From Terriglobia bacterium (GTDB lineage Bacteria; Acidobacteriota; Terriglobia; 20CM-2-55-15): 64,000 nt of DNA. Each line of letters begins with the position of its first letter. Positions within the stretch are counted from its first letter, which is position 1. The stretch spans positions 320,001 to 384,000 of the forward strand of contig CAXWPJ010000010.1 of assembly GCA_963664115.2 (NCBI GenBank). The letters are read 5' to 3'. The position numbers were made by a program, and so were the translations under genes. Below, piece after piece: positions 2,667-60,728 of this stretch. The notes beneath the pieces are model-generated. The model saw nothing but the letters and a program-made list of their open reading frames with translations. It had not been told where the DNA came from and ran no database searches.

Positions 2667-4196
2667 TCAGATTCTCAATCTTCGTTGGTGGGTGCTGGGA
2701 ATCTTCAGATCTTCCCGGTACTTGGTGACGCTGCGGCGCGTAACCGAGATACCATCTTCCTGCAACAAAGCCGCAAGTTTCTCATCCGTGAGTGGTTTGT
2801 GGGCATCCTCACTCTCGACCAATCGCTTGACCTTCAATTTGACCAAGGTGAGGGATGTGTCCCGTCCGTTGGTGCCTTTGACAGCTTCAGAGAAAAAGAA
2901 TCGCAGCTCGCACACTCCCTGGGGTGTGTACGCAAACTTATTGGCGACAGCCCGGCTCACCGTCGACGGATGCACCCCCACTTCTTCAGCAACATCTTTG
3001 ATCATCATCGGTTGCAACGCATCGATTCCGTGATCCAGGAAATCATGCTGGTGTTTAACGATGGCCTCGCACACCTTGACGATGATGTTCTTCCGCTGTT
3101 CGATGTTCTTCAAAAGCTGGACCGCTGACTTGAACCGGTCTTTCACATAGTTACGAACTTCCTTATTGACCTCCGCTCCCTTCTGGAGCATTTTCCGATA
3201 CGTCTGGTTGAGTCGAAGTTGCGGAACTTCGTCCTCGTTAGCGACGACGGTATATTCGTTCCCTACTTTCACCAGATACACGTCCGGTTCAATATGCCGG
3301 GCGTCGGGCTTATTGTATTTCTGGCCAGGGCGTGGATCGAGGGTCTGGATGAGTTCCAGTGCAGCCAGAACCTCCGGCATCGGCCGGCCCAGCGCCTTGG
3401 CGATTTCTTTGTATTGATGGTTCTGAAGTTTCCGCAGATGATCGGTAACGATCCCCATAGCGGTCGAGTTGTCTTCAGCGAGAAGAGCAAGCTGGATGAG
3501 CAAACACTCCCGCAAATCCCGAGAACCGACACCAGGGGGATCGAAGCTCTGAACCCTCAGCAGCGCCTTTTCGACCGCTCCGATTGTGTGAGGACCCGAG
3601 ATCGCAATTTCCTTGAGAGAAATAGGAACTTCAACGCCCTTCTCGTTAACCCCGGCAAGATATCCGTCCTCATTGAGATTACCGATAATCGAGGCACAGG
3701 CCTCCCGCACATCCGTATCGATGACCACGAGACCCAACTGCCATTCCAGGTGATCGTTCAACGTGGACGGACGTGCCAGAAAGTTTTCGAAGGAAGGCCT
3801 TTCAAATACCTCTGTTTCCCGCGGTCGGGAAGCCCCGTCGCTGAGGTATTTCTCGAATTCCTGAAGATCGAAATCACGGAACTCGTCTTCCTCAGGGGCC
3901 TCGGGCTCGGGTTTTTCGACGGTCGGCTCCGCATTTTCCTCGCGTTGTTTCAGCAGTTCGTACTGCGCGTCGGCCCCATCCCCCGGCTCGGGATTTTCTT
4001 CGAGAGATTCAACTTCCTGCTCTTCGACAATTTCGGTAGCTTCCTCCAACACGGGGTTTTCCACAAGCTCTTCAGAAATCATGTCCACCAGTTCCAGCTT
4101 ATTAAGAGCAAGGAGGCTCACCATCTGGACCAGGCCCGGAGTGAGGACCTGTCTCTGGGTCGTTTTGAGGGCCAGCCTGTGTTCGAGATATGCCAT
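2667..4196 (-). CDS. rpoN: RNA polymerase sigma-54 factor
   Basis: HPSTVSRA HTH and RpoN-box-like RRSVTKYRE. Confidence 0.96.
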   Translation of the reverse strand: MAYLEHRLALKTTQRQVLTPGLVQMVSLLALNKLELVDMISEELVENPVLEEATEIVEEQEVESLEENPEPGDGADAQYELLKQREENAEPTVEKPEPEAPEEDEFRDFDLQEFEKYLSDGASRPRETEVFERPSFENFLARPSTLNDHLEWQLGLVVIDTDVREACASIIGNLNEDGYLAGVNEKGVEVPISLKEIAISGPHTIGAVEKALLRVQSFDPPGVGSRDLRECLLIQLALLAEDNSTAMGIVTDHLRKLQNHQYKEIAKALGRPMPEVLAALELIQTLDPRPGQKYNKPDARHIEPDVYLVKVGNEYTVVANEDEVPQLRLNQTYRKMLQKGAEVNKEVRNYVKDRFKSAVQLLKNIEQRKNIIVKVCEAIVKHQHDFLDHGIDALQPMMIKDVAEEVGVHPSTVSRAVANKFAYTPQGVCELRFFFSEAVKGTNGRDTSLTLVKLKVKRLVESEDAHKPLTDEKLAALLQEDGISVTRRSVTKYREDLKIPSTHQRRLRI

Positions 4197-45474: not shown

Positions 45475-46893
45475 TCATCCTGCTGCTTCTGATCTAAGCA
45501 CTTCCAGGAATTCGGTGGCGCTGTATCCGGATCGGATCACCCGGATACCCAGTTCCCTTTCCACATCAGCGAGGGTCATATCGTCTAAGAAAAGGCCTTC
45601 CTCACCAATCATGGCCTCCGATGGCAGAACGACGAAGTCGCCATAGACCTTGTCCTTGAGGGCCGCTACGAAATCACTGCCCGTCAACAACCCGGCCACA
45701 TTGATCCCGGAGCCCCAGAACCGGTTCTCCACAACGACCGTCTTGAGATCCAGCCCCAGTCGGGCGACACATTCGGTAAGGTAGGGATGGAAGAGTCGCC
45801 CGGTACAGAGCGTTCCTTTGGAGACGGTGCCGTTTAAGGCCGCACCATCGAAGAAATCACTCACCGCATTCTCGAATTCGTCGAGAAAGGTCCGAACCAT
45901 TCCAACTCCGTTTTCAATCTGGGGAAACTCCTCATAGTGGTCACCGTCGGGAATGGCCTGACCGGCAAGAATATAGAATTCGTCGCCCAAAAAGACGAGC
46001 GGCGTCCCCAGGTCCATTTCGAAGCGCTGCTGGATCGGCGTAACGTGCGCTATCGTCCCGCGAGCATAGTCCGGCGTGACCGCTTCGAGTGTCGGAAGGT
46101 TTTCCCGATGATCGGTGAGTCCGACCGGAACCACAGCGACAGACCCTACAGACGGAAAGCGATGTGACAGATCCGCTATCGTTCGCTCCAGATGAGGGCC
46201 GTCATTCAAACCCGGACACAGGACGACCTGGCAGTGCAGGACGATTCCGGCCGCAGTCAGGCGATCGAGTTTGCCATCCAGCCCGTCGTAGGCCGTGTTC
46301 CCCAACAAACGTGTCCGAAGTTCGGGTTCGGTGGCGTGGACCGAAATATAGAGAGGCGACAAACGCTGTTCGATGATCCGGTCCAGTTCGGCGTCATCAA
46401 CGTTGGTGAGGGTCAGGTAGTTACCAAAGAGAAACGAAAGGCGATAGTCCTCGTCTTTGATGCGAAGAGATCGGCGAGCGTCGGGCCGGTTCTGGTGAAC
46501 GAAACAGAACACGCATTCGTTGTCGCACACCCATGGCTCGATGGGCTCCAGTTCAACCCCAAGACTTTCCCATTCTTCCCGTACGAATTCGTGGGTCTGC
46601 CGCTGGGTCCGCAGCGACACAGGCGCATCAAAAACCGCCATCTGGAACTGTAGGTCGATGACATCTTTGGGCGGTGTGCCGTTGACTTCTACGATCTCGT
46701 CACCCGCCTGAAGCCCGATTCGCGCGGCCAGCGATTCGGGTTCTACTCCCAGAATCCGCAAGGGAGCCGAGACGCCTTTATGCGTGGGCGGGGCATGCCG
46801 GTATTCATGCTGAGCCGACATTTTACGCGCGAGGTCCTGATCGTTGGCTTTACGGACGTAGGCGCTTGAAGAAAACTGCTTTTTCGCAGCCAT
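45475..46893 (-). CDS. PDZ + radical-SAM DUF512 family Fe-S protein
   Basis: N-terminal PDZ-like segment, CDNECVFC motif, KDEDYRLSFL.GNY.TLTN, QIENGVG. Confidence 0.85.
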   Translation of the reverse strand: MAAKKQFSSSAYVRKANDQDLARKMSAQHEYRHAPPTHKGVSAPLRILGVEPESLAARIGLQAGDEIVEVNGTPPKDVIDLQFQMAVFDAPVSLRTQRQTHEFVREEWESLGVELEPIEPWVCDNECVFCFVHQNRPDARRSLRIKDEDYRLSFLFGNYLTLTNVDDAELDRIIEQRLSPLYISVHATEPELRTRLLGNTAYDGLDGKLDRLTAAGIVLHCQVVLCPGLNDGPHLERTIADLSHRFPSVGSVAVVPVGLTDHRENLPTLEAVTPDYARGTIAHVTPIQQRFEMDLGTPLVFLGDEFYILAGQAIPDGDHYEEFPQIENGVGMVRTFLDEFENAVSDFFDGAALNGTVSKGTLCTGRLFHPYLTECVARLGLDLKTVVVENRFWGSGINVAGLLTGSDFVAALKDKVYGDFVVLPSEAMIGEEGLFLDDMTLADVERELGIRVIRSGYSATEFLEVLRSEAAG

Positions 46894-47487
46894 TCAATGC
46901 TCGAGAAGCCTGCGGCCAACGGCGAGGTACTGGAAACCCGAGACAACGGTGAGCAGACCGGTCAGGATGAACAAAAAATATATCCCACTCTCCTCGACGC
47001 CGATCCAATTGTAGAGGAGCACGGCAAACACAGTCAGGAATTGAAACACTGTGTTGGCTTTCCCGACAAGCGTGGGTGGAAAAACGCGAAAGCCGTAAGT
47101 AATGATGAACGCCAATCCACCAAGCAGTATGAACACATCGCGAAAAATCACCAGTAGAAGAAGCCAGATCGGAATAGGGTTCGCAAACCCCATCTGGGGT
47201 AGTGACAGCACAACGATGGAGCTACTCATGAGCAACTTGTCAGCGATCGGATCCAGGATCGCGCCCAGGGATGTTTTCTGCCGAAAGTGACGTGCAATAA
47301 GCCCGTCCATCCCATCGGTCACCGCGGCCACGCAGAAGGTGATCAGCGCCCAGCCCAGCCGGTTATAAGCGAGGAGAATAATGAACACCGGGATAAAGAC
47401 GATCCTCAAGAGCGTCAACTGGTTGGCTATCGTTAGAATGTTCGGCCGGTACTTCTCAACGGTACGGTCGGAGAGTCTGGTGGACAC
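46894..47487 (-). CDS. CDP-alcohol phosphatidyltransferase (PgsA-like)
   Basis: NQLTLLR and DGMDGLIAR...G.ILDPIADK motifs. Confidence 0.9.
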   Translation of the reverse strand: MSTRLSDRTVEKYRPNILTIANQLTLLRIVFIPVFIILLAYNRLGWALITFCVAAVTDGMDGLIARHFRQKTSLGAILDPIADKLLMSSSIVVLSLPQMGFANPIPIWLLLLVIFRDVFILLGGLAFIITYGFRVFPPTLVGKANTVFQFLTVFAVLLYNWIGVEESGIYFLFILTGLLTVVSGFQYLAVGRRLLEH

Positions 47488-47566
47488 GCTTTTTATCCTA
47501 AAATGAGGAAAGGACGCAATGACCTCGTCACTGCGTCCTTCAATTTTCGGCCGCTTACCGTGGAGC

Positions 47567-47995
47567 TTACTCCGCCGTCACGGGAACAACAACGTCCACG
47601 ATCTGGCGCGAGCAAAAACCGTCGGATTTGGAACAAAAGAAGTAAACGAGTTCGCCTGGAATCTCATACTCACCCGCCACGGCCGCTTCCACGGCAACAT
47701 TAAAAGCGGGCACGTCCACGTAATAATCGTCAGTCGATTTCGGATCTTCTGGAGGCGACTCCAGCTTGGCCGCATCGTGCGTCAACCCTTCAACAGGCTG
47801 CAGCTTCAACTGGATCGCCGGCACGCGGTTGATCACGTATCCGTCCAGGACGTCGAACGAGACGACAACCTCGCCGCCGGCGCCGGCTTCGATGGCATCG
47901 TCAGAATAGTTCGCTTCCATAACCTGCGGCAGTCCCCCTCCCAAAGTCAGGAGCTGGGAAAGAAGAAGGATGATTCCGAATCCAAAATTCACCAT
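47567..47995 (-). CDS. Secreted hypothetical protein, DsbD N-terminal-domain-like
   Basis: Signal peptide; C-terminal YFFCSKSDGFC. Confidence 0.55.
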   Translation of the reverse strand: MVNFGFGIILLLSQLLTLGGGLPQVMEANYSDDAIEAGAGGEVVVSFDVLDGYVINRVPAIQLKLQPVEGLTHDAAKLESPPEDPKSTDDYYVDVPAFNVAVEAAVAGEYEIPGELVYFFCSKSDGFCSRQIVDVVVPVTAE

Positions 47996-48072
47996 AATAG
48001 TCTCCTGCGATTGCCCGTACGGATGTATTCCTCACGACATCGAATGCGCTGGAAATCGTTCAGAATTATAAC

Positions 48073-49164
48073 ATGAGAATCATTTCCGTCGCGGGCGCCC
48101 GGCCCAACTTCATGAAGATCGCGCCCCTGGTCGCCGAGTGCAGCAGGGTCTCTGGAATCAACCACTTGCTGGTCCATACCGGGCAACACTACGACACACA
48201 GATGTCAGACGTATTCTTTCGGGATTTGTCCATTTCCTCACCCGATATCGATCTCGGTGTCGGATCGGCGTCCCACGCGGTTCAGACGGCCCGGATCATG
48301 ATGGAATTCGAAAAGGTCTGTACGCGGGAGCTCCCGGACCTCGTTATCGTCGTCGGTGACGTCAACTCGACGATGGCGGCAACCCTGGTAGCGGCCAAGC
48401 TCAACATACCGGTTGCGCACGTCGAAGCGGGCCTGCGCAGTTTCGATCGCGGGATGCCCGAGGAGATCAATCGCATCGTGACGGACCAGTTGGCGGACTA
48501 TCTGTTCACGACGAGCCGGGAGGCGGACGAGAACTTGAAGCGGGAAGGCGTGAACCCTGAGAAGATCCACTTCGTCGGAAACGTCATGATCGACACTCTT
48601 CTCAAGCACCGGGGGAAGGCCGATGGTCTCAACGTTGCCTCCGGGCTGGGAATCGACGGCACAGACTACGCTCTGATGACCCTGCACCGGCCGTCAAACG
48701 TAGACAACCCGGCCGTTCTTCAGGGAATTCTTACCGCCGTTCAGGACATCTCGACATCGCTCCCGGTGATCTTCCCCATTCATCCGCGTACATCGCAACG
48801 GATCCGGGAATTCGATCTCGACGCGATGGTCCACGGCAGCGTCCGTCTGACCGACCCCCTGGGATACCTTGAGTTTCTCAACTTGATGTCGGGAGCCCGC
48901 CTGGTCCTGACCGACTCAGGAGGCCTGCAGGAAGAAACGACGATTCTGGGCGTCCCGTGTCTGACGATCCGGCAAAACACCGAGCGCCCCGTGACAATCT
49001 CCGAAGGCACGAACGAACTGGTCGGGACGGATCCGGTCCGTATTCGGGAAGCTGCAGACAGGATTCTTGCCGGAAATTGGAAAACACCCCGCGTACCCGA
49101 ATACTGGGACGGCAAAGCGGCTGAACGGATTGTTGCGATACTCACCGCGAACGTTTCTGCCTGA
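48073..49164 (+). CDS. wecB: UDP-N-acetylglucosamine 2-epimerase (non-hydrolysing)
   Basis: GARPNFMK, HTGQHYD, HVEAGLRS, TDSGGLQEE and TERP motifs. Confidence 0.93.
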   Translation: MRIISVAGARPNFMKIAPLVAECSRVSGINHLLVHTGQHYDTQMSDVFFRDLSISSPDIDLGVGSASHAVQTARIMMEFEKVCTRELPDLVIVVGDVNSTMAATLVAAKLNIPVAHVEAGLRSFDRGMPEEINRIVTDQLADYLFTTSREADENLKREGVNPEKIHFVGNVMIDTLLKHRGKADGLNVASGLGIDGTDYALMTLHRPSNVDNPAVLQGILTAVQDISTSLPVIFPIHPRTSQRIREFDLDAMVHGSVRLTDPLGYLEFLNLMSGARLVLTDSGGLQEETTILGVPCLTIRQNTERPVTISEGTNELVGTDPVRIREAADRILAGNWKTPRVPEYWDGKAAERIVAILTANVSA

Positions 49165-49196
49165 ACTGCACAACTGTCGAAGAGAAGCCGAAGATT

Positions 49197-49378
49197 TCAC
49201 CGCAAAGGCGCAAAGACGCAAAGGAAGATGGGATGGTCTGTGTAGATTTCGTCTGATCGCAACTCTATGGGTTCTCAACGACGTTCTTGCTAACCCGAAT
49301 AACTCCAGTCGAGCGGGATGAAGGCAGGCTATCCCGTCCTGCTTTTTCTTCCTTTGCATCTTTGCGCCTTTGCGGTTA
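49197..49378. repeat. Family-A inverted-repeat element copy 11
   Basis: Family termini plus core. Confidence 0.88.
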
Positions 49379-49555
49379 ATCCCCTCTTAATTCTTCCCTT
49401 AAATGTCTCGAAAGCCCGGAAAAAGTGGGTCGTTGACCCGGAGGTTATGGGTCAGACGCCCATTCAGTTTCAATAGTTTAGTGGAGGACCATGACATGCT
49501 CAGTCGTCGATGGGTCGGTGACGATGATTACTCTGTTAACTTCGAGTGGGATAAA

Positions 49556-50101
49556 ATGGCACATATGGATACCAAGGGGCCGGCGACGATCGACGATCTC
49601 TATAACGTTCCCGAAGACGGGCGTAAATACGAGCTGGTCGACGGAGAGATTCTGGTGAGCCCGGGTGGGTTCCGCCACGGCCAAGTCTCCGTCCAGATCG
49701 GCTACCTGATCAAACGATTCCTGGAAGGTTCACCGATCGGCGTTGTCTGCGGCGCGGACCTCGGCATTATCTTCCCCAACGGCAACTTGAGATCTCCGGA
49801 CGTAACTTTCGTTCGTAACGAAAAGGTCCCAGCCGGGGAGGCGGCTGAGCGATTTCTTGAGGCTGTGCCCGACCTCGTGGTCGAAGTACTTTCTCCGGGC
49901 GACCACATGCGGCATGTCGCAGACAAGATCGGTGAGTTCCTGGAATCCGGTGTGTGTCTGGTCTGGTTGGTCGACCCTCAGCCCGAAACCGTCACGGTGT
50001 ACCGCTCGTTGACCGATACCCGCCAACTCCGGGGCGACGACCTCATCGACGGAAACTCTGTCCTTCCAGGCTTCAAAGCGAAAGTCTCCGACTTCTTTTA
50101 G
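49556..50101 (+). CDS. Uma2 family (PD-(D/E)XK-like) putative endonuclease
   Basis: YELVDGEI...RSPDVTF...PDLVVEVLSP...K..E..ESG..LVWLVDP...VLPGF. Confidence 0.9.
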   Translation: MAHMDTKGPATIDDLYNVPEDGRKYELVDGEILVSPGGFRHGQVSVQIGYLIKRFLEGSPIGVVCGADLGIIFPNGNLRSPDVTFVRNEKVPAGEAAERFLEAVPDLVVEVLSPGDHMRHVADKIGEFLESGVCLVWLVDPQPETVTVYRSLTDTRQLRGDDLIDGNSVLPGFKAKVSDFF

Positions 50102-50143
50102 CTTCAGCTGAACTGCAGATTACTCAGACCGAAACAAAATCTT

Positions 50144-50320
50144 TCACCGCAAAGGCGCAAAGGAAGATGGGTTGGTCTGTGTGAATTGCGTCGGACTGAA
50201 CCTCTATGGGTTCTCAACAGCATTCTTGCTAACCCAGACAGCTCAAGTCGCGCAGAACGTAGGCAGTCTTTCCGTCTTTCTTTCATTTTCTTCCTTTGCG
50301 TCTTTGCGCCTTCGCGGTGA
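50144..50320. repeat. Family-A inverted-repeat element copy 12
   Basis: Family termini plus core; flanks shared with copy 11. Confidence 0.88.
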
Positions 50321-50651
50321 ATCCCCTCTCAGTTCTTCCTAAAGAAGTCTCGAAAGCTGCGCCTTTGCGGGTCGCGGTTTTAGCGGTCTTTCACTTCCCC
50401 TCTGTTTGATTTCAGTGCGTTAACAACGGACCTCTCCGTGCACTTCTAGTCAGCGTTCCGGTGGATGGCGGGCTTGGGGGCTCAATTAACCGAAGGGCCG
50501 GTGCCTCCGACGTGATTCGCCGGAACTCATTCTCCAAATTCCTCTCGGCGGTTAGAAGGCGAGGCTGTGTATTTACAAATGGAAAGGGCCGCAGTTTCGC
50601 GGGCCGCCGGGAGGAAACACATCCAACCACTATTACCTCAAAGGAGGTTTC

Positions 50652-50957
50652 ATGTTTCGAAAAGCATTTGCAGCGACGCTCCTCTTCACGTTCCTGTTCG
50701 CCATGGCCACGATCGCGCCCCAGAGCAGTGAAGCTCAGTCTGCGACCACCATGGTCATCGATATCAATTCGGCTCCCCTGGCTGCGCTCCAAGGCATCGT
50801 TCAGGACGAGGGTCTCGCCCAGCGGATCATCGAAAATCGGCCGTATGCCAACAAACGGCAGTTGCTTTCACGTCAACTCGTGTCGGCAGAGCAATACGAC
50901 GAGATCAAGGACAGGATCATTGCTCGACGGATCGAGGATTCGGAAGACTCCCGGTAG
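50652..50957 (+). CDS. Secreted ComEA-like helix-hairpin-helix DNA-binding protein
   Basis: RBS AAGGAGG; signal peptide; IDINSA...LAQRIIENRPY...YDEIKDRI. Confidence 0.8.
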   Translation: MFRKAFAATLLFTFLFAMATIAPQSSEAQSATTMVIDINSAPLAALQGIVQDEGLAQRIIENRPYANKRQLLSRQLVSAEQYDEIKDRIIARRIEDSEDSR

Positions 50958-50964
50958 CGCGGCA

Positions 50965-51252
50965 ATGTACGCGCGCATGGTGATCGGCGAAGCAATCCAT
51001 GAAGATCAGGTTTCAGAGTTCGTTCGGATCTACGAGTCAGAAGTGCTTCCCAAGCTCCACGACGAACCGGGGTTCGAATCGGCGAACTTCATGGTCGAAG
51101 ATGGAGGCCGGATGGCGATTTCGCTCACGCTCTGGCAATCCCAGCAGGACTGCCTGAAATACCACTCCAGTATGGCTTACCGCCAGTTGGTGGAAAAAAC
51201 CCAGCATCTGTTGAAAGGCAGTTTCATCGTGCGGTTATTCCGTACCGTTTAG
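50965..51252 (+). CDS. Antibiotic-biosynthesis-monooxygenase-like (dimeric alpha/beta barrel) protein
   Basis: MYARM...VLP.L..EPGF...ISLTLWQS pattern. Confidence 0.7.
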   Translation: MYARMVIGEAIHEDQVSEFVRIYESEVLPKLHDEPGFESANFMVEDGGRMAISLTLWQSQQDCLKYHSSMAYRQLVEKTQHLLKGSFIVRLFRTV

Positions 51253-51285
51253 GCCCGAGACAGAAAGCGGGGGAGGCAAGAGACC

Positions 51286-51391
51286 TAACCGCAGAGACGC
51301 AAAGGCGCAAAGGAAGAGAGAAGAGTCAGTTTGTCTTTTCTGAAAATCATTTTTCTTTGTCTTCCTTTGCGCCTTTGCGTCTTTGCGGTTC
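51286..51391. repeat. Family-A inverted-repeat element copy 13 (minimal, no core)
   Basis: TAACCGCAGAGACGCAAAGGCGCAAAG ... CTTTGCGCCTTTGCGTCTTTGCGGTT. Confidence 0.85.
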
Positions 51392-51426
51392 AAACTTCTT
51401 GCCTCTTCATATCCATGCCTCTGCGT

Positions 51427-52443
51427 TCATTCTTTTTCTTTTCTGCGGTAGGGCCTGAAATCGACGTTGCATCGGTGGCGCCGCAGGAAGTCCATGAATC
51501 GCTTGTAATCGGTGTCGGGCATATTAAAGAGTCGGACGACCTTTCTGTAGCTACCGTGGGTTTGAACCAGGCCACGCCGGATGACGGCCTCGACCTGTCG
51601 CTTGGTGATCAGACGGTCGGTGTAGGGCCGGGCGACCGATTCCCAGAAATCGTCGACGACGACTGCCTCGACAGGTTCCCGAACCAGGGCATCCGTGGGC
51701 AGCGTGATCGCATCCGGTGCAATAATTTCTGTCTCCGACATGTAGTAGCTGCTTTCAATGACGTTCTGCAGTTCGCGAATGTTTCCCGGGTAATGATAGG
51801 CAAGCAACTTTTCCATGGCATTGGGCGACAGAGTTCTCTCTTCTCCACTGTCGGCATTCAGCGATGCGACGATATGACGCACCAGAAGCGGGATGTCGGA
51901 CCGGCGCTTTCGAAGCGGGGGAACTTCAATCGCAAATACGTTGAGACGGTAGAGGAGGTCTTCGCGGAAATCACCCGAACGCGCCATCGACCGAAGGTCA
52001 CAGTTGGTGGCGGCGATTATGCGGGCGTCGATCGGGCGGTCGACAACGTCACCGAGTCGACGCACCTGCTTCTCCTGAAGCACGCGGAGAAACTTCACCT
52101 GGAATCGTTTGGAAGTATTCGCAATTTCATCCAGGAAGAGCGTTCCCTGGTTCGCTTGCTCAAAAAGTCCGGGTTTGTCGCCGATGGCCGTCGTAAAGGC
52201 GCCACGCCGGTAGCCGAACAGTTCGCTTTCGACCAGTTCTTCCGGAAGGGCACCGCAATCAATGGGCACGAACCGGCGCTGGCGGCGGCTGCACTGATCG
52301 TGAATAGCACGTGCGACCAATTCCTTTCCGGTACCGGTCTCTCCCTGGATCAGAACCGAACTCGAAGTTCTGGCAGCGGCTTGAATTTTTGAGTGCAGGA
52401 GTTCGACCGCATCACTTTGTCCAATCATTTTTGTTCGCATCAT
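51427..52443 (-). CDS. Sigma-54-dependent transcriptional activator lacking an N-terminal sensor domain
   Basis: GETGTGKELVA, ESELFG..RGAFTTA, LFLDEI, FREDLLYRL and YPGNIRELQN motifs; starts MMRTKMIGQS. Confidence 0.88.
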   Translation of the reverse strand: MMRTKMIGQSDAVELLHSKIQAAARTSSSVLIQGETGTGKELVARAIHDQCSRRQRRFVPIDCGALPEELVESELFGYRRGAFTTAIGDKPGLFEQANQGTLFLDEIANTSKRFQVKFLRVLQEKQVRRLGDVVDRPIDARIIAATNCDLRSMARSGDFREDLLYRLNVFAIEVPPLRKRRSDIPLLVRHIVASLNADSGEERTLSPNAMEKLLAYHYPGNIRELQNVIESSYYMSETEIIAPDAITLPTDALVREPVEAVVVDDFWESVARPYTDRLITKRQVEAVIRRGLVQTHGSYRKVVRLFNMPDTDYKRFMDFLRRHRCNVDFRPYRRKEKE

Positions 52444-52464
52444 GACACTACAGCCGGAGCAGAC

Positions 52465-52992
52465 ATGGAAAAGGTCACTCAAAAATTGGAGCAAGGCAGC
52501 CCGGAGGTTCTCGAAGAGCTCGGTCGCGCAATCCGAAAGATCCATGGCACGCGCGATCCGGATCTCGAGCAGGAAGTCTTTCTCAGAACGCTCAAGGCGT
52601 TTCGGAAGGAAAGAAGGGTCGAGCATCCGCGGGCACTCATATGGAAGATCGCCAAAGACACGGTCGCTGACCATTGGAGGCTCAGGGCGCGGGACCGTTG
52701 GGACCCCCTGGACGAACTCCAGCACCCGGCCGCCCAGGACACGGATGCCGAACGCGACCTCGATCGAAAACGTCGTGTCGAACAATTGCGAAACGGGATC
52801 CTGCGACTTGGATGCGACATCCGGGGATCGGTCTACCTGTTTTACATGGAAGGCTATTCGGTTTCCTCGATCGCGCGGATTTATGGAAAGACGCCCTCCG
52901 CGGTCAAGATGGCCCTCTACCGGGGACGGCGGCAATTGGTGCGAATGTTTCGATCGGACGCGACTAACAAGTCGGGCTTCGAGCGACTTTGA
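52465..52992 (+). CDS. ECF-type RNA polymerase sigma factor
   Basis: DLEQEVFLR...IAKDTVADHWR (region 2); LFYMEGYSVSSIA...VKMALYRGRRQL (region 4). Confidence 0.85.
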   Translation: MEKVTQKLEQGSPEVLEELGRAIRKIHGTRDPDLEQEVFLRTLKAFRKERRVEHPRALIWKIAKDTVADHWRLRARDRWDPLDELQHPAAQDTDAERDLDRKRRVEQLRNGILRLGCDIRGSVYLFYMEGYSVSSIARIYGKTPSAVKMALYRGRRQLVRMFRSDATNKSGFERL

Positions 52993-53102
52993 GGCCCGCC
53001 AGAGCCGTAACTCATTGATCTCAAGACGGACTAAGAATGGAACCCCACGTGAAACAGTCTGAGTCGGGCACACGGTCCGCGATCTGGGAGGATCAACACA
53101 CA

Positions 53103-53285
53103 ATGAATCGACAAATTGTAACGCTCAGCAGCACAGAGCTCATGGGAACAGTCGGCGGTGACTGGAATTGGCACGATTTCTTTGCGGGGGCCACCTGGGG
53201 TTTAGGCGCAGGCTGCGGGATCAGCGGTCACCCCGTTCTGTGTATGGGCGCCCTGTTTACTGGCGGCATAACGATGTTCTTCTAG
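53103..53285 (+). CDS. Double-glycine-leader peptide 1 (class II bacteriocin-like precursor)
   Basis: RBS GGAGG; leader MNRQIVTLSSTELMGTVGG then a 41-aa Gly-rich core with two Cys. Confidence 0.85.
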   Translation: MNRQIVTLSSTELMGTVGGDWNWHDFFAGATWGLGAGCGISGHPVLCMGALFTGGITMFF

Positions 53286-53297
53286 GAGGAATGAACA

Positions 53298-53483
53298 ATG
53301 ACATCACACGTCCAAGACATTTCCGCATTGGAACTCCAGCAAATTGGTGGAGGTGACTGGTTTGAAACCACCTGGGGAATCCTGCTCGGCACGGGATTCG
53401 CTGCCGGCTTCCTCGGTTCGGGTGGACTGCTGACGATTGCAGGAATCGCCGGATTTGGCCTGATCTTCGGTCCCCCGTTCTAA
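53298..53483 (+). CDS. Double-glycine-leader peptide 2 (class II bacteriocin-like precursor)
   Basis: RBS AGGAGG; leader MTSHVQDISALELQQIGGG then a 42-aa hydrophobic GxxxG core. Confidence 0.85.
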   Translation: MTSHVQDISALELQQIGGGDWFETTWGILLGTGFAAGFLGSGGLLTIAGIAGFGLIFGPPF

Positions 53484-53576
53484 GCATTCAACCTCTTCAA
53501 CCCTTAGGTGCGCTCGAATGGGCGCACCTCGCATTCCACCTGGACCTGCGTGCCATGCGCGCACAAAACTAAATCA

Positions 53577-54317
53577 ATGGACGTCTTTCAACTCGAACAA
53601 GCCGTCAAAAAGCGCAGCGACGATTTTGTCCTGGGACCGCTCGACCTTCATCTCTCAGCGGGGGAAATCCTCGGTGTCATGGGCCCTAACGGTGCGGGCA
53701 AAACCACCCTCCTGCGATTGTTGTGGGGCTTTCTGCGTCCGGACGCCGGGCGCGTGTCTGTGTTCGGCAGAACACCCCATCTGGAACAGGTCTGGATTCG
53801 TCTACGGGCGGGCTACCTTCCCGAGTCGTTGAAGTTCTATGACTGGATGACGGTGGATCGATTCCTTGCGTTCATGGCCGGTTTCTATCCGTCCTGGGAC
53901 TGGGGCCATGCCCTTGAACTCCTGGAGCAGTTCGGAATAACTCCCGCCCGGACTATCGGGACCTTATCCAAAGGAAATCGGGTGAAGCTGGGCCTTCTGG
54001 CAGCGGTGGCCCATCGGCCAAAGCTACTGATCCTGGACGAACCGACCTCGGGTCTGGACCCCTTGATACGAATCGACATCCTCCATTTCCTCCGATGCTC
54101 CGCACAAGAAGACGGCACGGGAATCGTCCTGTCCTCTCATGTGTCCGACGATCTGGACCGGATTGCCGATTCCGTTCTGATGCTGAACGACGGCAAGGTA
54201 TTGGAGTATGCGCCGACTAAGGTTCTGCTCGACAAAACCAACGAAACTCAACTGGAGGCTGTGTTTTTGAATGCGGTCGGTAGGATTCCCACATCTCGCG
54301 TTCCACATCGCGCGTAA
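53577..54317 (+). CDS. ABC-2-type transporter ATPase (putative immunity/export)
   Basis: [13 protein letters not shown] and LILDEPTSGLDP motifs, SSH; start MDVFQLE. Confidence 0.88.
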   Translation: MDVFQLEQAVKKRSDDFVLGPLDLHLSAGEILGVMGPNGAGKTTLLRLLWGFLRPDAGRVSVFGRTPHLEQVWIRLRAGYLPESLKFYDWMTVDRFLAFMAGFYPSWDWGHALELLEQFGITPARTIGTLSKGNRVKLGLLAAVAHRPKLLILDEPTSGLDPLIRIDILHFLRCSAQEDGTGIVLSSHVSDDLDRIADSVLMLNDGKVLEYAPTKVLLDKTNETQLEAVFLNAVGRIPTSRVPHRA

Positions 54318-54906
54318 AGACTGGGCCGAAGCGCGTCATGTCGTGATCGCGCTGACCCTGGGTCTTATGGTTCCCGCCCTGCTCGTCCGCTTCGCTCCGG
54401 GCCGTTCGGACGACTTCGCAAAAGGTCTGCTGGCCGGCTTGCTCGCAGGTGCCGGTTTCGGCTACGCCCAGTTCTGTTTCCTGAACGAACGCCAGCGAGG
54501 CACACTGGAGTTTCTGCTCAGCCTTCCCATTGAGCCCCGACAGCTTGTCCTCGCCAAATTCGTCTCCCTGTACTCAATGGTCCTTTTCACCGTAAATGTC
54601 CCTGGCCTGCTCGTCCCAGACCTTCGGCTCGTCTACATCACCAACGCCGCAGCCCTTTCACTAGCAACCGTCTTCATGGCCACAACGGTCATCTCAGACA
54701 AGCCCTGGGCCTCGCAAATACCCATCTGGTTCCTTCTCGTCTTCATCCTCCCCATCCAACGCCTCCTCGAACGCTACTACCCCAACGGACTGCAGCTCTT
54801 CGAAACCCTCACCGCCAACCCCATTCTGTTAGCGACATTCGCCTTGCTCGTCAGCCCGCTCGTTGTCGCTGTATCCGTTTCGATTTTTCACCGCAAAGGC
54901 GCAAAG
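54271..54906 (+). CDS. ABC-2-type permease, read through in frame into the GxxExxY gene
   Basis: Multiple TMs with ERQRGTLEFLLSLPI.P..LVLAKF; no stop before 55284. Confidence 0.8.
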
Positions 54907-55392
54907 GTGAATGAGAACCCTTTGTCACGGAAGGTCATTGGGGCCGTAATTGAAGTGCACCGCATCTTAGGCCCGGGCCTACTAGAGTCGATTTATCAAG
55001 ACTGCCTCGACATTGAGTTCCGGCTTCGAAGAATCAGGTTCGAAAGGGAAAAGAGAATCCCTCTCATCTACAAAGACCAAGATCTGAGAGAGCGCCTTCG
55101 TATCGACTTTCTCGTCGCAGATGAAGTCGTAATCGAAACCAAATCCGTTCACTCGTTACTGCCCGTACATGACGCGCAAGTGCTCACGTACCTAAAGTTG
55201 ACCGGCTGCAAATTAGGTCTGCTGATCAACTTCAACGTCCCAGTAGCAAGAGACGGAATCAAACGCATCGTAAACCGCCTCTAGCCCCCCCCCTTTTCGT
55301 TTGCATCGACGCCCCCTTTGTTTCCCATTCGGATTCCCCCTCCCCCATATAGAATCGTCTTTCTTCTTTGCGTCTTCGCGCCTTTGCGGTGA
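54888..55392. mobile_element. Family-A element copy 14 carrying a GxxExxY gene (candidate autonomous copy)
   Basis: Left TCACCGCAAAGGCGCAAAG immediately before the GTG; right CTTTGCGTCTTCGCGCCTTTGCGGTGA. Confidence 0.65.
54907..55284 (+). CDS. GxxExxY family protein (PD-(D/E)XK nuclease superfamily)
   Basis: IEVHRILGPGLLESIY (GxxExxY), RIDFLV...VIETKSV, AQVLTYLK...GLLINF. Confidence 0.92.
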   Translation: MNENPLSRKVIGAVIEVHRILGPGLLESIYQDCLDIEFRLRRIRFEREKRIPLIYKDQDLRERLRIDFLVADEVVIETKSVHSLLPVHDAQVLTYLKLTGCKLGLLINFNVPVARDGIKRIVNRL

Positions 55393-55543
55393 ACCTCTTC
55401 ATGTCTTCGCCTTGAAGCTCTAAATTCCCCGCTTTATCTCCCCGTACCCACACAAACAAATCGCCGATCAAGCGTCTTTCCCATTCTTGGTCCTATGGTG
55501 TGAGCCGTTTAGCTATGGCCCCCCAACTGCCCTTTCTCCCACT

Positions 55544-57618
55544 GTGGCATACACCATCATTCACCAGCATGACGCCAATGACTGTGGCCCCGCGTGTCTG
55601 GCGATGGTGGCGGCGCATTATGGAAAACGTCAGTCCATTGCTCGACTCAGAGAAAAATCTGGAACCGACCGCCAGGGCACAAACCTCGCAGGGCTAATAC
55701 AGGCGGCCCAGGAAGTGGGCTTCGAGGCCCGTGGCGTCCGCGCCACCCCGGAAGGCCTCACCGAGGTCACGCTCCCCGCCATCGCCACTGGTCCGAAGAC
55801 GGGCGGAACCACTTCGTCGTCCTGTTCAAACAAAGCTCGCGGCGCATTACGATCGGCGACCCCGCCCTTGGTGTACGCAAGCTCACACCCGAAGAATTCG
55901 CTGCGCACTGGACCGGGATACTCGTACTTCTGAAACCCACCCTCAACTTGCGGGATCTATCCACGCCCTCGCTTTCGAAACTGTGGTCCCTGGTTGGCCA
56001 CCATCGAAAGCTCTTCCTGGATGCACTGCTCGCGGCAGTCCTCATGACGATCCTCGGCCTCGCCTCAGCCTTCTTCATCCAAGTCCTCGTCGACTTCGTG
56101 TTCCTTGTTGGAGCCGAACCCACCTTAAACTGGCTCGGCCTGGGCATGCTGCTCGTGCTGGGTGCGCGTGTCGCGTTCCACGGCCTCCGAGCCTATCTCC
56201 TCGCCCACCTCAGCCACCGGATCGATGCGGACATTGTGTTGGGATACCACCATCATGTCCTGGGACTGCCGCTTGATTTCTTCTGGACCCGCCGGACCGG
56301 CGAGATCCTCTCCCGCTTGTCTGATGCGATGAAGATCCGCCTGGCGATCAGCGGGACTGGCCTTGCCGTCATCGTCGACGGCATCACCTTGATTCTGACC
56401 GCCACCATCATGTGCATCCTTCATTGGAAACTGGCCATCGCTTCTCTCGCTCTTTTGCCAGTGCTCGTCGTTGTCCTCTATGGTTTGACGGGGCCTATGA
56501 AACGCGCCCAGCGGACGGCCATGGAGCGGGCCGCACACTTCGAGTCGCACACCGTAGAAGCCGTCAGCGCCATCGATACGGTCAAGGCGTTTCGGGCCGA
56601 AGACCGCATGCGGCTTCGCGGCGAAGTCCGCTTTGGTGAGTTGATCGACGCCACGTTCCGGGCCGAGATCTTTGCCTTGCACGCCTCCACCTTAACAACG
56701 TTTCTGACCGGACTGGCAAGCCTGACGCTGCTGTGGGTCGGCGGGCGCGAAGTCCTCGCCGGTGGTCTGAGCGTCGGTCAGCTCATGGCACTCTTCACGA
56801 TGTTGGGAACCGTTATTGGCCCCGTCGAACGACTGGCCAATGCGAATCAATCCATACAGGACGCATTGGTCGCTGGAGAACGCCTTGGGGAAATTTTTGA
56901 AATAGAGCCCGAAGAAAATCGGGAACCTCAGGAAAGATCGATGAAGGTCGCACGTTCCATTGAAGGTGCCATCGAATTTCAGAACGTGACATTTGGCTAT
57001 GGAAACCGGCCGCCCGTCATCAAAGATCAGAGCTTCCGCATTGACCCCGGCGAATGTTGCCGCATCGTAGGCGCAAGCGGTAGCGGCAAGACAACGCTTG
57101 CCCGGGCGCTGGGACGGTTTCTGAAACCCCACAGTGGGCGTGTCTTAATTGATGCCATCGATGTCAACGATTACACCCTGGAGAGTCTGCGCCGCCAGGT
57201 GGGCTATGTCTCCCAGGACGGGCACATACTGAGTGTCTCCATCGCCGACAACATTCGCCTGGGCCGGGCGGACGCTTCCCCTACAGAAGTCCGCCTGGCC
57301 GCGACCCAGGCCGGAGCCGCCGCATTTATCGAACACCTACCCCTGGGCTACAACTCGCTGGTCGGCGAGCGCGGCACTACCCTATCGGGTGGGGAACGGC
57401 AGCGCTTGCTCCTGGCACGGGCCATTCTTGTCAACCCGCCCATACTGGTTCTTGATGAACCGACCAATCACCTCGACCGGGCATCGACACAGGCAGTCCG
57501 GGAACTGATCGATCAGCGCAAACGCGACCACCGCACAACGATCATAATCTCCCACGACGAACTGCCCGCCCACAGAACGATTGCCATCGACAGCAACACT
57601 TATGCGCTGGCGAACTGA
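55544..57618 (+). pseudogene. Peptidase-containing ABC transporter (C39 + TMD + NBD) split by a 1-nt frameshift near 55786
   Basis: QHDANDCGPACLAM...LPAIA in one frame; HW...NHFVVL...IGDPA, GASGSGKTT and LSGGERQR in the next. Confidence 0.85.
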
Positions 57619-58771
57619 GCTTAACCTCGGCGGAAAGCCCCGCCTGGTGGGCGCGACGGTCTACGTCCTTGCCACTCTCCTGGCCATTGCACTCACATGG
57701 AGTTATTTCACTGAAGTGGACGTCGTCGTCCGTGCACCCGGCCTGGTCCGGCCCGATGGCGAAGTCGTTCGAATCACCTCCGAGGTCGCCGGAACCATCG
57801 AGGCCGTCCACGTTGAGGAGGGCGACGCAGTTCACACAGGTGACATCGTCGTCCGGTTGGACAACCAGCAGATCCGTTTGGAACGCGAAACGATAGAACA
57901 CCAAATCGCTCTCGCCGGGGAACAACTCCGGGACCTCGATCGCAGGATCGCGACCACGGCCAGAATCCACGTTCTGGAACTGGAAAAGCTCGACACGGAA
58001 ATCCGCTCAGCCCGTCAAGTCCTGGAACAAGGACACAGGGAACACGCGGCTCAAATGGAATCAGCCTCGCTTCGGCTGGAACAGACACGCCAGGAACACT
58101 TGAGGAACCAGCAATTGTTCGCGGAAGGACTCATCTCCCGGCAAACTTCGGATCGCTTCCGGAACGATTTCAATCTGGCCGAGGCCCAGCACCTGGAAAT
58201 CCTCTATCGGAAACCCACTGACGCATCCTTGCAATCGTTGCTGGAAACGAAAAATTTGATCGATGCGGAACTTGAATCACTCCAACAGGACCTTCGGATG
58301 GAATCCGTGCCGATCGAGGCCCAACGGACCGAACTCCGGTCACGACAACAGCAAGTCGATCAGGAAGCGGAGCGCCGCTTCATTCGCAGCCCGTCTACGG
58401 GCCAGATTACCCTGCTGCCCACAGTACATCCGGGAGAACATATTGCCGCCGGCACTCTGATCGCAACGCTGGCCCCGACACCGGTCCGTCCCATCGTCGA
58501 GGCCTGGGTCCCAAACGCCAAGGCCACGGACCTTCGGCCCGGCCATCCCGCCCGTCTCCGTCTTGACGATTCGGAAACCATAGACGGCATCGTCTTCGCC
58601 GTCAGCCCGGACGTGCGGTTTACCGAGTCCGCGAACGGCGCCTTCCAGGTCCTGATCGCCCCCGACACGCTGGGCCTCCGCCTCGGCCTGGCCGTCGACG
58701 TCCGCCTCATTACACGCCAGGAGCGAGTCCTGACCTTGCTGTTCAACAGAATCGAAAGGGCGTTTGACTAA
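57602..58771 (+). CDS. HlyD family membrane-fusion/secretion protein
   Basis: N-terminal TM, V.A.G.V.P, G.I..V.VEEGD.V..G, long coiled coil, IRSP..G. Confidence 0.88.
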   Translation: MRWRTELNLGGKPRLVGATVYVLATLLAIALTWSYFTEVDVVVRAPGLVRPDGEVVRITSEVAGTIEAVHVEEGDAVHTGDIVVRLDNQQIRLERETIEHQIALAGEQLRDLDRRIATTARIHVLELEKLDTEIRSARQVLEQGHREHAAQMESASLRLEQTRQEHLRNQQLFAEGLISRQTSDRFRNDFNLAEAQHLEILYRKPTDASLQSLLETKNLIDAELESLQQDLRMESVPIEAQRTELRSRQQQVDQEAERRFIRSPSTGQITLLPTVHPGEHIAAGTLIATLAPTPVRPIVEAWVPNAKATDLRPGHPARLRLDDSETIDGIVFAVSPDVRFTESANGAFQVLIAPDTLGLRLGLAVDVRLITRQERVLTLLFNRIERAFD

Positions 58772-58871
58772 CTAGTAATTCATACTCGGAAAGCTAACAC
58801 TGGCCTCCAACTGGCCCACATGACAATGCCCGACCCTTGACTCGACTTCTGGCCTACGCACAACGGGTGTA

Positions 58872-60728
58872 CTAGACCCAAAACAAGCGCATAACCAGTC
58901 CGCCGAGGCCCAGTTCGCGCCGATAGAATTCGAGGCATAGAATCCCGTTCCCGGATGGCCTGTTCCAGGTATCGAGTTTCTGTTGAATCTGTTTCAGTTC
59001 AGCCTCGCTGGTGTTGGACGGTTGACAGAAACCGGGACCTCGATCGCCCGGGCTCAGAGTCATGATCGGGTCAACATCGCAGAGGCTGACGCAACACATC
59101 CACCCCGCGGAACAAGACCGGCAACCACCGGTTCCAGGCCAGGATCCGGAACAGAATGCGCCGCCCGGTGCGCACGAGTTGGCACGGCACAAGCATGAAA
59201 GCGTTCAAGAAGGTTTTGAACTCCATGCGCAGCACGGTTTGCTTCTCAGCCTGATATTTTTGGCCCCAACGTCCGGTTTCGGGAAGCAGCAATGCAAACC
59301 ACGCTTTCAGTGTCCAGGCCAGTGACGCGATCACCATGTAGGCCCAGTTGCTGGTCTGATCTCCGACCGGCATCCGCAACGCCTGAACGCCGTTCTTCAA
59401 CTGCTCAATGAGATTCTCCTGATTGCACCGTTGATTGGCACGCATCACAATCTGGTCGGCCGGATCCGAACGGTTGGTAATGTAGAAGAAGTACCGGATG
59501 TCGTCAAACAACACCTGCTCTCCTTTGGCCACCGACAGATTCTTCCGCACCACGACGACACGGTAGTCCCGATCGCAGGCTCCGGGTCGATACCGAAACT
59601 CGGCCACATCCTCACCCTGCAAGCGGATATTGTCGAAACCGCGCTGCCGAACGATCTCTTCCTTCACGTTGTCGGGACGTTGGCGCGGTTCGGTCGCCAC
59701 GTCGTATTTCGCGGGCCGTTCCAGGCGCTTCCACTGGCGCGGCTCCAGTTCATCGGCCCGGGCCTTCAGGTTCGCCATCGCGTCAATCCCGAATATGAAA
59801 CCCACCTGCTGGTCGTCCCATCCGTCCAGATGCCGGGTCTGGCTGAAGTCCGTGTCCCCGCGCAGCAGGATCTGGCGAAACCCCGCATGCCGGCACAATG
59901 CGATGGCTTGGTCGAACCGGACCGCGGCTCCTTCATGCGACGGCCGGTTGCCGCTACGATTGACCAGATACAGCGGTTCGGCGGTGTTGGCCAGCGAGAT
60001 CATCAGCGGGTGATATCCCCACGTCCCGTCGTAGGCCACGTCCATCCCTTGCTTGCATTCCCCCGTGGTTTCGGCCAGTGTCCCGTCCGCGTCCAACACC
60101 GCTTCTTCGAAAAACGCCGCCGGTTGCTGTCGCCAGACTCCGAGCCGGACTTGATTGGTTGCCTCCATCAGACACTCCACGTCGTCGGCCTCGAATCTCC
60201 GGCAGAAGTCTCCCGCCGTCGTCGGATCCGGAATCCGTTGCGCTCCCAGCGCATCCAGATACACCGCATCGTTGCGCCGCAGTTCGATGTCTTCCAGGCA
60301 CGTTCCTCCGCTCAAGGCGTTGTAGGCGATGTTCAGCACGTGATCCGACTCGTGATACGGCAGGTGCCGCTTCAACACATGCACGCCCTTGTCGATGGCT
60401 TCGATCAGCCCGGTCCGCCGCGCCACCAGTTGCATCGTCCCGATACCACCAACCGATGTGCCCCGCGTCCGCTCTCCCATCTCGTACTGAATGTTGCTCG
60501 CCGAAAACATCGGCTCTACCTGATCCGTCCAATGCCGGTCCCCAAGCCGACGTTCGATTCGCCGCTTGCGGTTCCTCATGTTCTTGCGCGTATAATCGTT
60601 CATCTGAAATGCCTCCTTTTCCGAAGAATCTGTTCAAGGTTTTTTTCGCACGGAGACGGGGCATTTCGGGTACTTCCGCTCTTATTGCACTATCATTTCC
60701 TCGTCAATCACGCTTGTTCAGGGACTAG
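58872..60728 (-). mobile_element. IS1380-family insertion sequence
   Basis: Imperfect inverted ends CTAGACCCAAAACAAGCG / CGCTTGTTCAGGGACTAG enclosing a transposase. Confidence 0.85.
59071..60603 (-). CDS. IS1380-family DDE transposase
   Basis: PDPTTAGDFCRRF, LDADGT, GYHPL, RGDTDF and R..QENLIEQLK motifs. Confidence 0.9.
   Translation of the reverse strand: MNDYTRKNMRNRKRRIERRLGDRHWTDQVEPMFSASNIQYEMGERTRGTSVGGIGTMQLVARRTGLIEAIDKGVHVLKRHLPYHESDHVLNIAYNALSGGTCLEDIELRRNDAVYLDALGAQRIPDPTTAGDFCRRFEADDVECLMEATNQVRLGVWRQQPAAFFEEAVLDADGTLAETTGECKQGMDVAYDGTWGYHPLMISLANTAEPLYLVNRSGNRPSHEGAAVRFDQAIALCRHAGFRQILLRGDTDFSQTRHLDGWDDQQVGFIFGIDAMANLKARADELEPRQWKRLERPAKYDVATEPRQRPDNVKEEIVRQRGFDNIRLQGEDVAEFRYRPGACDRDYRVVVVRKNLSVAKGEQVLFDDIRYFFYITNRSDPADQIVMRANQRCNQENLIEQLKNGVQALRMPVGDQTSNWAYMVIASLAWTLKAWFALLLPETGRWGQKYQAEKQTVLRMEFKTFLNAFMLVPCQLVRTGRRILFRILAWNRWLPVLFRGVDVLRQPLRC

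Follow-up and report, generated by a model that had tools for sequence, protein, structure and literature searches.

Two-peptide (class IIb) bacteriocins have as their defining traits two precursors encoded side by side, double-glycine (GG) leaders, GxxxG motifs, an immunity gene close by and a dependence on both peptides (PMC2850506). Microcins are mostly neutral or anionic, hydrophobic and glycine-rich, and are exported by a C39-peptidase ATP-binding cassette (ABC) exporter (PCAT), a membrane-fusion protein and TolC (PMC10233263). The Cdz, Nap and Mcc17978 loci show that such systems occur in Gram-negative bacteria with differing functions (PMC5380434, PMC11798529, PMC10333792). Double-glycine peptide exporters in Gram-negatives are thus already known, and the basic export logic is not new. 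Here we describe a peptide locus at positions 51427..58771 of a 64,000-nucleotide stretch of a Terriglobia bacterium genome (contig CAXWPJ010000010.1, positions 320,001 to 384,000; hereafter the window). A literature search that took in few subscription papers and no supplements returned no description of this Acidobacteriota peptide locus. Drawing on observed gene content, leaders, charge, conservation, co-occurrence and DNA motifs, we favour, at a probability of about 0.5, a reading of the locus as an operon, inherited within the family, for the export of unmodified, hydrophobic, anionic GG peptides that would act as a class II microcin-like antibacterial, with peptide B as the core toxin, a pump for protection and a three-step regulatory cascade.

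The two peptide genes lie 12 nt apart on the plus strand. Peptide A (53103..53285) is a 60-residue precursor with a 19-residue GG leader and a 41-residue anionic core carrying a predicted disulfide, and peptide B (53298..53483) is a 61-residue precursor whose 19-residue GG leader precedes a 42-residue anionic, very hydrophobic glycine-zipper core. The predicted core masses are 4350 and 4247 Da. Both cores start with DW, end in hydrophobic residues and hold three GxxxG motifs each, a count that is a weak test in cores of 22–26% glycine. An 82-residue form of peptide A from a start at 53037 was rejected: it would run across the predicted promoter, and the ribosome-binding site is at 53086. Because dN/dS fell between 0.11 and 0.48 in 9 of 10 pairs of peptide genes, the tenth being saturated at silent sites, A and B are, by their pattern of substitution, coding genes under purifying selection. 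Both are present in four sequencing runs with no difference listed. A scan of the 4.9-Mb genome for the GG leader pattern returned four open reading frames (ORFs), namely A, B and their duplicates on contig C9; family profiles found no further A/B family member in the genome, and the C39 domain of the locus is its only one.

These results bear out much of an earlier, sequence-only reading of this DNA. Its gene list and order were confirmed by the ORF listing and family scans, as were its two peptides of 60 and 61 residues with 19-residue GG leaders and DW cores rich in GxxxG. No modifying enzyme was found within the locus by Pfam and NCBIfam scans, as that reading had said, and a modified ribosomally synthesised peptide (RiPP) or circular bacteriocin was rejected, no enzyme or circularisation gene being present at the locus. 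Its pairing of a C39 exporter and HlyD with unmodified, hydrophobic, glycine-rich cores is supported, as is its Acidobacteriota-like host, the relatives being labelled Terriglobia. Homologous PCAT loci, which it had proposed to check for a lack of similar peptides, were looked at and similar peptides were present.

Once near-identical duplicates had been excluded, 44 precursors from 30 loci were tabulated. All 43 scored leaders have L, I or V at position −12. Net charge is −1 or lower in 44/44 cores, lysine or arginine being present in 6 of them (the leader of L022 was cut too early in scoring, which puts its charge off by one and leaves the sign unaffected). Typical family cores are 39–48 residues long with a membrane-spanning hydrophobic stretch, mean hydropathy over 19 residues reaching 1.8. 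A-type cores start with DWxW and contain at least two cysteines in 12 of 14 cases; A-type and B-type cores form separate lineages (support 98/93, 63 columns), and among the loci that carry both, GxxxG occurs in 13/14 A cores and 14/14 B cores. A fold model of peptide B alone (pLDDT 65, pTM 0.27) was too weak for a structure search. Among 1.84 billion representatives the B profile matched 69 proteins, 68 of them short; a search with the A profile found 24 proteins. The weakest matches may lie outside the family. When 20 of the proteins from the profile searches were looked up, both with an organism name were Acidobacteriota. At 50% identity the short B-like sequences number about 68, a ready candidate set.

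The 30 loci comprise 14 with A and B, 14 with a B-type peptide alone and two with one short peptide (G219 and G199), whose 19–20-residue cores group with A on long branches. Six B-only loci (G019, L059, L065, L066, L068 and L071), three of these complete operons being near-copies, have intact regulators, ABC-2 pair, exporter and HlyD, and full-length A is never found without B in the 30 loci. Searching five single-peptide genomes (88–96% complete, fragmented) with the A profile revealed no separate A gene. We consider B the likely core toxin and A an optional second component. In three loci (L051:600-1194, L056:810-1460 and L058:880-1460) the peptide pair is relocated behind the permease, together with the promoter element. 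In L039:8880-13300 and in L038 (G006, G016), the end of the gene for the extracytoplasmic function (ECF) sigma factor, the peptides and the permease occur as tandem partial duplications whose peptide copies are decayed and divergent; tandem copies of this kind are a possible source of new alleles.

The C39-peptidase ABC exporter (55544..57618, plus strand; PF03412 in two frames) is split in the window by a one-base frameshift near 55785, and the window allele is therefore likely unable to process or export the peptides. Contigs from four runs, one of which may be the source of the window, carry the intact form (X2, X8), a mixture (X1) or the broken form (X3). Because X3 holds the broken form on a gap-free contig at depth 10, the broken allele is real and polymorphic; an assembly error, suggested by a duplicate on contig C9 that is in frame there, was rejected on the same ground. 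This duplicate (C9:1-14285) is 99.9% identical to window positions 46445-60728 and carries different indels in the ECF gene and exporter. We rejected a true second copy, as the duplicate sits at the contig start and similar duplications occur at other contig ends, and consider it likely to be a contig-end assembly overlap or a second strain or haplotype. Intact exporters in relatives are 687–707 residues long, and an intact homologue aligns to PDB 4RY2 (E 3e-137) with the C39-domain residues Q, C, H and D, which we take to be catalytic, matched in the alignment. Judged by sequence, cleavage and export by the intact alleles is very probable. The exporter is followed by a HlyD-family periplasmic adaptor (57602..58771, plus strand; PF13437, with TIGR01843 under cut-off). 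A plasmid search gave a best exporter identity of 38.5%, with no close plasmid copy. The locus had been described as self-contained, which overstates the case, because the single rpoN gene of the genome (window ~2679-4160, minus strand) is remote from it and the five TolC-family ORFs in the genome all lie elsewhere.

The ECF-to-activator-to-sigma-54 cascade is the new element of this analysis, and conserved DNA elements suggest it. A 338-residue sigma-54 activator with no N-terminal sensor domain (51427..52443, minus strand; PF00158, PspF/HrpRS-like layout) diverges from an ECF sigma gene (52465..52992, plus strand; PF08281, and TIGR02937 at 44.7 bits against a cut-off of 42.9), their starts being 21 nt apart, and no anti-sigma gene is adjacent. 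A GTGACC-N15/16-CGGCT motif with −35/−10 geometry (52449..52478, minus strand) forms a predicted ECF-type promoter of the activator and ends 5–6 nt before its ATG; the activator mRNA is predicted to be leaderless. At least 10 of its 11 letters are present in 30/30 loci, 13 of which were not used in choosing the motif, against a shuffle mean of 0.06 and maximum of 2, and its position is outside the ECF coding sequence in the displayed loci with a 15-nt spacer. When the window was excluded from training, this promoter was still the best site in the genome, scoring 24.1 against 19.2 for the next, the shuffled-genome maximum being 20.3.

Some 60 nt ahead of the first peptide, 19 dereplicated loci aligned without an anchor have GG in 19/19, T(−14) in 19/19 and G(−13) in 17/19, which in the window marks a predicted sigma-54 −24/−12 promoter of the peptide operon (53038..53053, plus strand), degenerate at −12. 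A stricter sigma-54 pattern, picked by eye, is found in 15/19 loci against a shuffle mean of 0.8. An imperfect palindrome of the ATCGCG-N5-CGCGAC type (52969..52987), the predicted activator binding site, lies 67–71 nt before the promoter GG in 13/15 dereplicated loci and is conserved beyond the ECF stop codon in some. From these elements we think it probable that the ECF sigma controls the activator, and the activator the sigma-54 promoter of the peptide operon.

Several other regulatory features were rejected. A wider ECF regulon is not indicated, no other genome site exceeding the shuffled maximum of 20.3, nor is a wider regulon of sigma-54 sites with the palindrome, this locus scoring 40.5 and the next site 24.4 with the window in training. 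A GGAAC element as the ECF −35 lacks a conserved −10 at 16–17 nt. The open stretch for a 558-residue activator antisense to the ECF gene is unconserved (227, 114, 139, 9 and 5 codons), and for a 5′-untranslated hairpin masking the ribosome-binding site RNAalifold returned 0 pairs over 8 sequences. Within the predicted 5′ untranslated region, a CCCGGCCC-like motif (window ~53070-53090, and in homologues) is conserved 15–19 nt past the promoter element. Elsewhere in the genome, an 896-residue sigma-54 activator (G000:C9:892871-895561) has the same unusual C-terminal domain, with 47.6% identity over the locus activator.

Downstream of peptide B by 93 nt lies the ATPase of an ABC-2 pair (53577..54317, plus strand; top NCBIfam match PmtA, under cut-off), together with a 207-residue ABC-2 (type V) permease (54271..54891, plus strand; PF12679). 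Modelled at pLDDT 80, the permease resembles the membrane domains of type V ABC transporters: NosY with E 6e-4 and, more weakly, CcmB and PmtCD (E 0.055). Across 29 loci from 27 genomes an unbroken permease match is present in 16/16 loci with a peptide and 0/13 without, counts taken among kin that were partly gathered with the permease as bait and so to be read as a pattern, not a statistic; two of the peptide-less loci retain an exporter only. No small dedicated immunity gene was detected: the gap between B and the ATPase is 93 nt, and no conserved small ORF was seen in the relatives' loci. In AS-48 and the lantibiotics, secondary ABC transporters confer self-protection (PMC8538875), and we lean, by a little, towards self-protection as the role of the pump here.

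Between G017 and G007/G004b the peptides differ with dN 0.14–0.24 and dS 0.30–0.63, whilst their neighbours are less changed (dN and dS, in turn: activator 0.004, 0.07; HlyD 0.013, 0.07; permease 0.022, 0.17). Because the peptides diverge faster than their neighbours, this comparison suggests that peptide alleles have been exchanged with the pump nearly unchanged. A near-constant pump is as expected of a general, not a cognate, protector.

In the window the permease is fused in frame (54271-55284) to a GxxExxY, PD-(D/E)XK-like domain (54907..55284, plus strand; TIGR04256, PF13366). The fusion arises from the lack of one 8-nt repeat unit relative to G007, and the four runs list no indel there. 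Relatives carry the domain separately, in many of them after the permease, or have it decayed or absent, and within this genome it is found at this locus only. The GxxExxY region (window 54889-55391) is flanked by inverted short repeats, with 108 genome copies at no more than two mismatches, an arrangement that recalls REP repeats with an associated nuclease. The same short repeats flank, within 49198-50320, a Uma2-family (PF05685) gene at 49403-50101, and Uma2 genes recur near the locus in genomes G017, G021, G013 and G016.

The permease profile matched 15/34 genomes of the same Terriglobia family and 0/366 in a sample of genomes from 13 other families of the class; a species-genome scan gave 8 loci, titled Terriglobia or Acidobacteria, and a metagenome scan 32. 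Inheritance of the locus is within a single family of Terriglobia. Its left flank is a family core formed by a helix-hairpin-helix (HHH) gene, an ABM gene, the activator and the ECF sigma, and the two regulators follow ABM also where the cargo is gone. The HHH gene (50652..50957, plus strand; secreted-type, PF12836, assigned by domain match and synteny) and the ABM-domain gene (50965..51252, plus strand; PF03992, by domain match), the latter present in 28/34 family genomes, are constant neighbours to the left of the activator throughout the family, including where the peptide operon has been lost. On the activator tree the peptide-less state requires at least four changes on starred branches, the tree being midpoint-rooted so that the order of events is not given; this is consistent with an ancestral locus that has been eroded repeatedly. 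Many family loci are broken by frameshifts, insertion sequence (IS) insertions and deletions. On the right, the locus is bounded by an IS1380 element outside the system (58872..60728, minus strand; NF033539), of which the 4.9-Mb genome holds 73 full copies; many family loci are cut by insertion sequences other than IS1380.

According to the favoured reading, the ECF sigma would transcribe the divergent, sensor-less activator, which would bind the palindrome at the ECF 3′ end and open the sigma-54 promoter ahead of the peptides. The C39 exporter would then remove the leaders by a cut after GG and secrete cores of 4.2–4.3 kDa with the help of HlyD and of a TolC encoded outside the locus. These would permeabilise the inner membrane of the target, probably via a receptor, since the cores have no positive charge, whilst the ABC-2 pair, standing in for a small immunity protein, would rid the producer's membrane of peptide. 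By analogy with described systems, killing of other bacteria is a probable outcome, counting the case in which both peptides are obligatory.

A number of observations weigh against this reading. The window peptides have no bacteriocin-family match in Pfam or NCBIfam at E 0.05–0.1 and fall short of the curated cut-off for PF10439 (Blp) membership; 4 of 26 B-type members match PF10439, at best with E 5.6e-5 and possibly through the leader alone, and the other family-level matches (BlpC and ComC models) are weak and probably leader-level. True family members typically share 170 features, more than link B to its nearest Atlas clusters. Class II microcins normally have a small immunity protein encoded alongside (PMC10233263), and none was found at the locus. 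The ATPase is broken in 2/16 peptide-bearing loci (G017 and G007), and exporter and HlyD are intact and adjacent in 3/16, some of these loci ending at contig edges; the ABC-2 pair could be a second exporter instead of an immunity system. In regulation, a complete −12 GC is present in only 4/19 promoters, although the Salmonella sigma-54 sites of pspA, pspG, hydN and glnH likewise lack the −12 C (PMC3844500). The activator loop has the sequence GAFTTA in 35 of the 39 loci that gave a match, and a review holds every residue of GAFTGA essential in model activators (PMC7057263). Since both regulators are intact in five genomes without cargo in the stretch fetched, they may serve other jobs.

A different account of the same genes is an obligate two-peptide bacteriocin of the class IIb type, in which A would pair with B through GxxxG helices and killing would need both at roughly 1:1, the B-only loci being inactive remnants or a different system. 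The adjacency of A and B in 14/30 loci, their separate lineages (98/93), the near-universal GxxxG and the absence of full-length A where B is missing all fit, matching the class IIb definition (PMC2850506) and the Gram-negative precedent of CdzC/D (PMC5380434). We nevertheless think it unlikely, given 14 B-only loci that include complete operons and five single-peptide genomes without a separate A gene by profile. Class IIb peptides are, moreover, usually cationic, whereas the cores here are anionic, and no dedicated immunity gene was found. Quite unlikely, in our view, is a secreted pheromone that would be sensed and feed back on the ECF sigma or the activator as a report of cell density. GG leaders with C39 exporters serve pheromones too, weak leader-level matches to the BlpC and ComC models were seen, dedicated regulators flank the peptides, and the shortest cores (19–20 residues, G219 and G199) are of pheromone size; but neither a sensor kinase nor a receptor or anti-sigma gene was seen in the loci examined, the activator lacks a sensor domain, and cores of 39–48 residues with a membrane-spanning hydrophobic stretch would be poor diffusers. 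Signalling is less likely than antibacterial action.

The hydrophobicity and 22–26% glycine of the cores would also suit glycine-zipper aggregates retained at the surface, acting in Cdz-like contact-dependent killing or as adhesive or matrix material, and CdzC/D, which leave by a type I exporter, do remain on the cell surface and form aggregates (PMC5380434). The Cdz system, by contrast, has a small three-helix immunity protein and precursors of 84–86 residues, and the search described for its homologues excluded zippers interrupted by Pro or Cys, such as peptide A has (PMC5380434); we give this possibility little weight. Least of all do we expect a role outside competition, such as self-directed lysis, on the pattern of the gonococcal Naps, which are bacteriocin-like, lack antimicrobial activity and promote autolysis (PMC11798529), or a largely decaying relic. 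The many broken family loci and the constant HHH DNA-binding neighbour would fit such a role, but the Naps are cationic, purifying selection acts on the peptides here, which diverge more quickly than the genes around them, and intact exporter alleles exist in this species and its relatives.

If the favoured, microcin-like reading is true, it adds a microcin-like antibacterial family in Acidobacteriota, supplies a natural series of one- and two-peptide operons for studying the origin of two-component bacteriocins, provides a case of pump-based, not cognate, immunity in a diderm, and offers a compact regulatory cascade whose three DNA sites are predicted with precision. A more far-reaching version, which we put forward only tentatively and hold to be improbable as a whole, would have family-wide anionic microcin-like warfare with switching between one and two components under a previously undescribed ECF-activator-sigma-54 cascade; peptide alleles would be swapped freely because a general ABC-2 pump, and not a cognate immunity protein, protects the producer.

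Compared with known regulators, the activator resembles PspF and HrpR/HrpS in being an AAA+ protein without a cis-regulatory domain and in its predicted action on a −24/−12 promoter through an upstream site (PMC7057263, PMC3105312). It differs in the loop GAFTTA, and no PspA- or HrpV-like inhibitor was seen. In the HrpRS to hrpL pathway the activators precede HrpL, which we take to be an ECF sigma, whereas the predicted order here is reversed, an upstream ECF sigma controlling transcription of the activator. The ABC-2-type ATPase and permease beside a putatively membrane-active peptide recall LanFEG, As-48EFGH and the phenol-soluble modulin (PSM) exporter Pmt; unlike these, the pair here has one ATPase and one permease gene, belongs to a diderm, is accompanied by no LanI-type protein and has a predicted function. 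Caulobacter CdzABCDI is likewise Gram-negative, with two small hydrophobic glycine-zipper proteins, a type I exporter and a TolC encoded outside the cluster, but its precursors are of 84–86 residues, neither can be dispensed with, and immunity comes from CdzI, a small membrane protein (PMC5380434). The present locus has precursors of 60–61 residues, a Cys pair in A, the ABC-2 pair and B-only operons, and no CdzI-like gene was found at it.

A likeness to Blp-type class II bacteriocins is supported by the PF10439 matches in 4 of 26 members and by Atlas, where such bacteriocins are the nearest clusters of A (0.92–0.93, 172–175 shared features) and of B (0.90–0.92, 149–158), a lead only. The assignment to class IIb made by the sequence-only reading stands in part. 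As in the class IIb and Blp systems of Bacillota, the window has two adjacent precursors, 19-residue GG leaders, inside the 15–30 residues of class IIb, with a C39 exporter (frameshifted in the window allele) and GxxxG in both peptides. The dedicated immunity gene is missing, only the ABC-2 pair being present, and the need for both peptides is doubtful; B stands alone in complete operons (14/30 loci are B-only), which argues against a family-wide need for equal amounts. Also unlike those systems, the second peptide is optional, the cores are anionic, and the diderm host requires HlyD and TolC and has no histidine-kinase quorum circuit.

The class IIa microcin MccV (CvaC, Cvi, CvaB, CvaA and TolC) shares with the locus the GG leader, the C39 PCAT, the membrane-fusion protein, a TolC supplied from elsewhere and a hydrophobic, glycine-rich, neutral or anionic core that is unmodified, bar a possible disulfide, and without a C-terminal Ser/Gly siderophore tail. 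In contrast to MccV, the operon here is chromosomal and family-inherited in Acidobacteriota, encodes one or two peptides under predicted sigma-54 and ECF control, yields cores of ~4.3 kDa, just under the 5–10 kDa range, and has the ABC-2 pair where MccV has a small cognate inner-membrane immunity protein; the libraries scanned gave no sequence match to known microcins. Because the immunity gene expected of both classes was not found at the locus, filing it as class IIb or as a class IIa microcin is not warranted. By analogy it likely works like a class II microcin, and it resembles the class II microcins of Gram-negative bacteria more closely than the class IIb bacteriocins of lactic acid bacteria.

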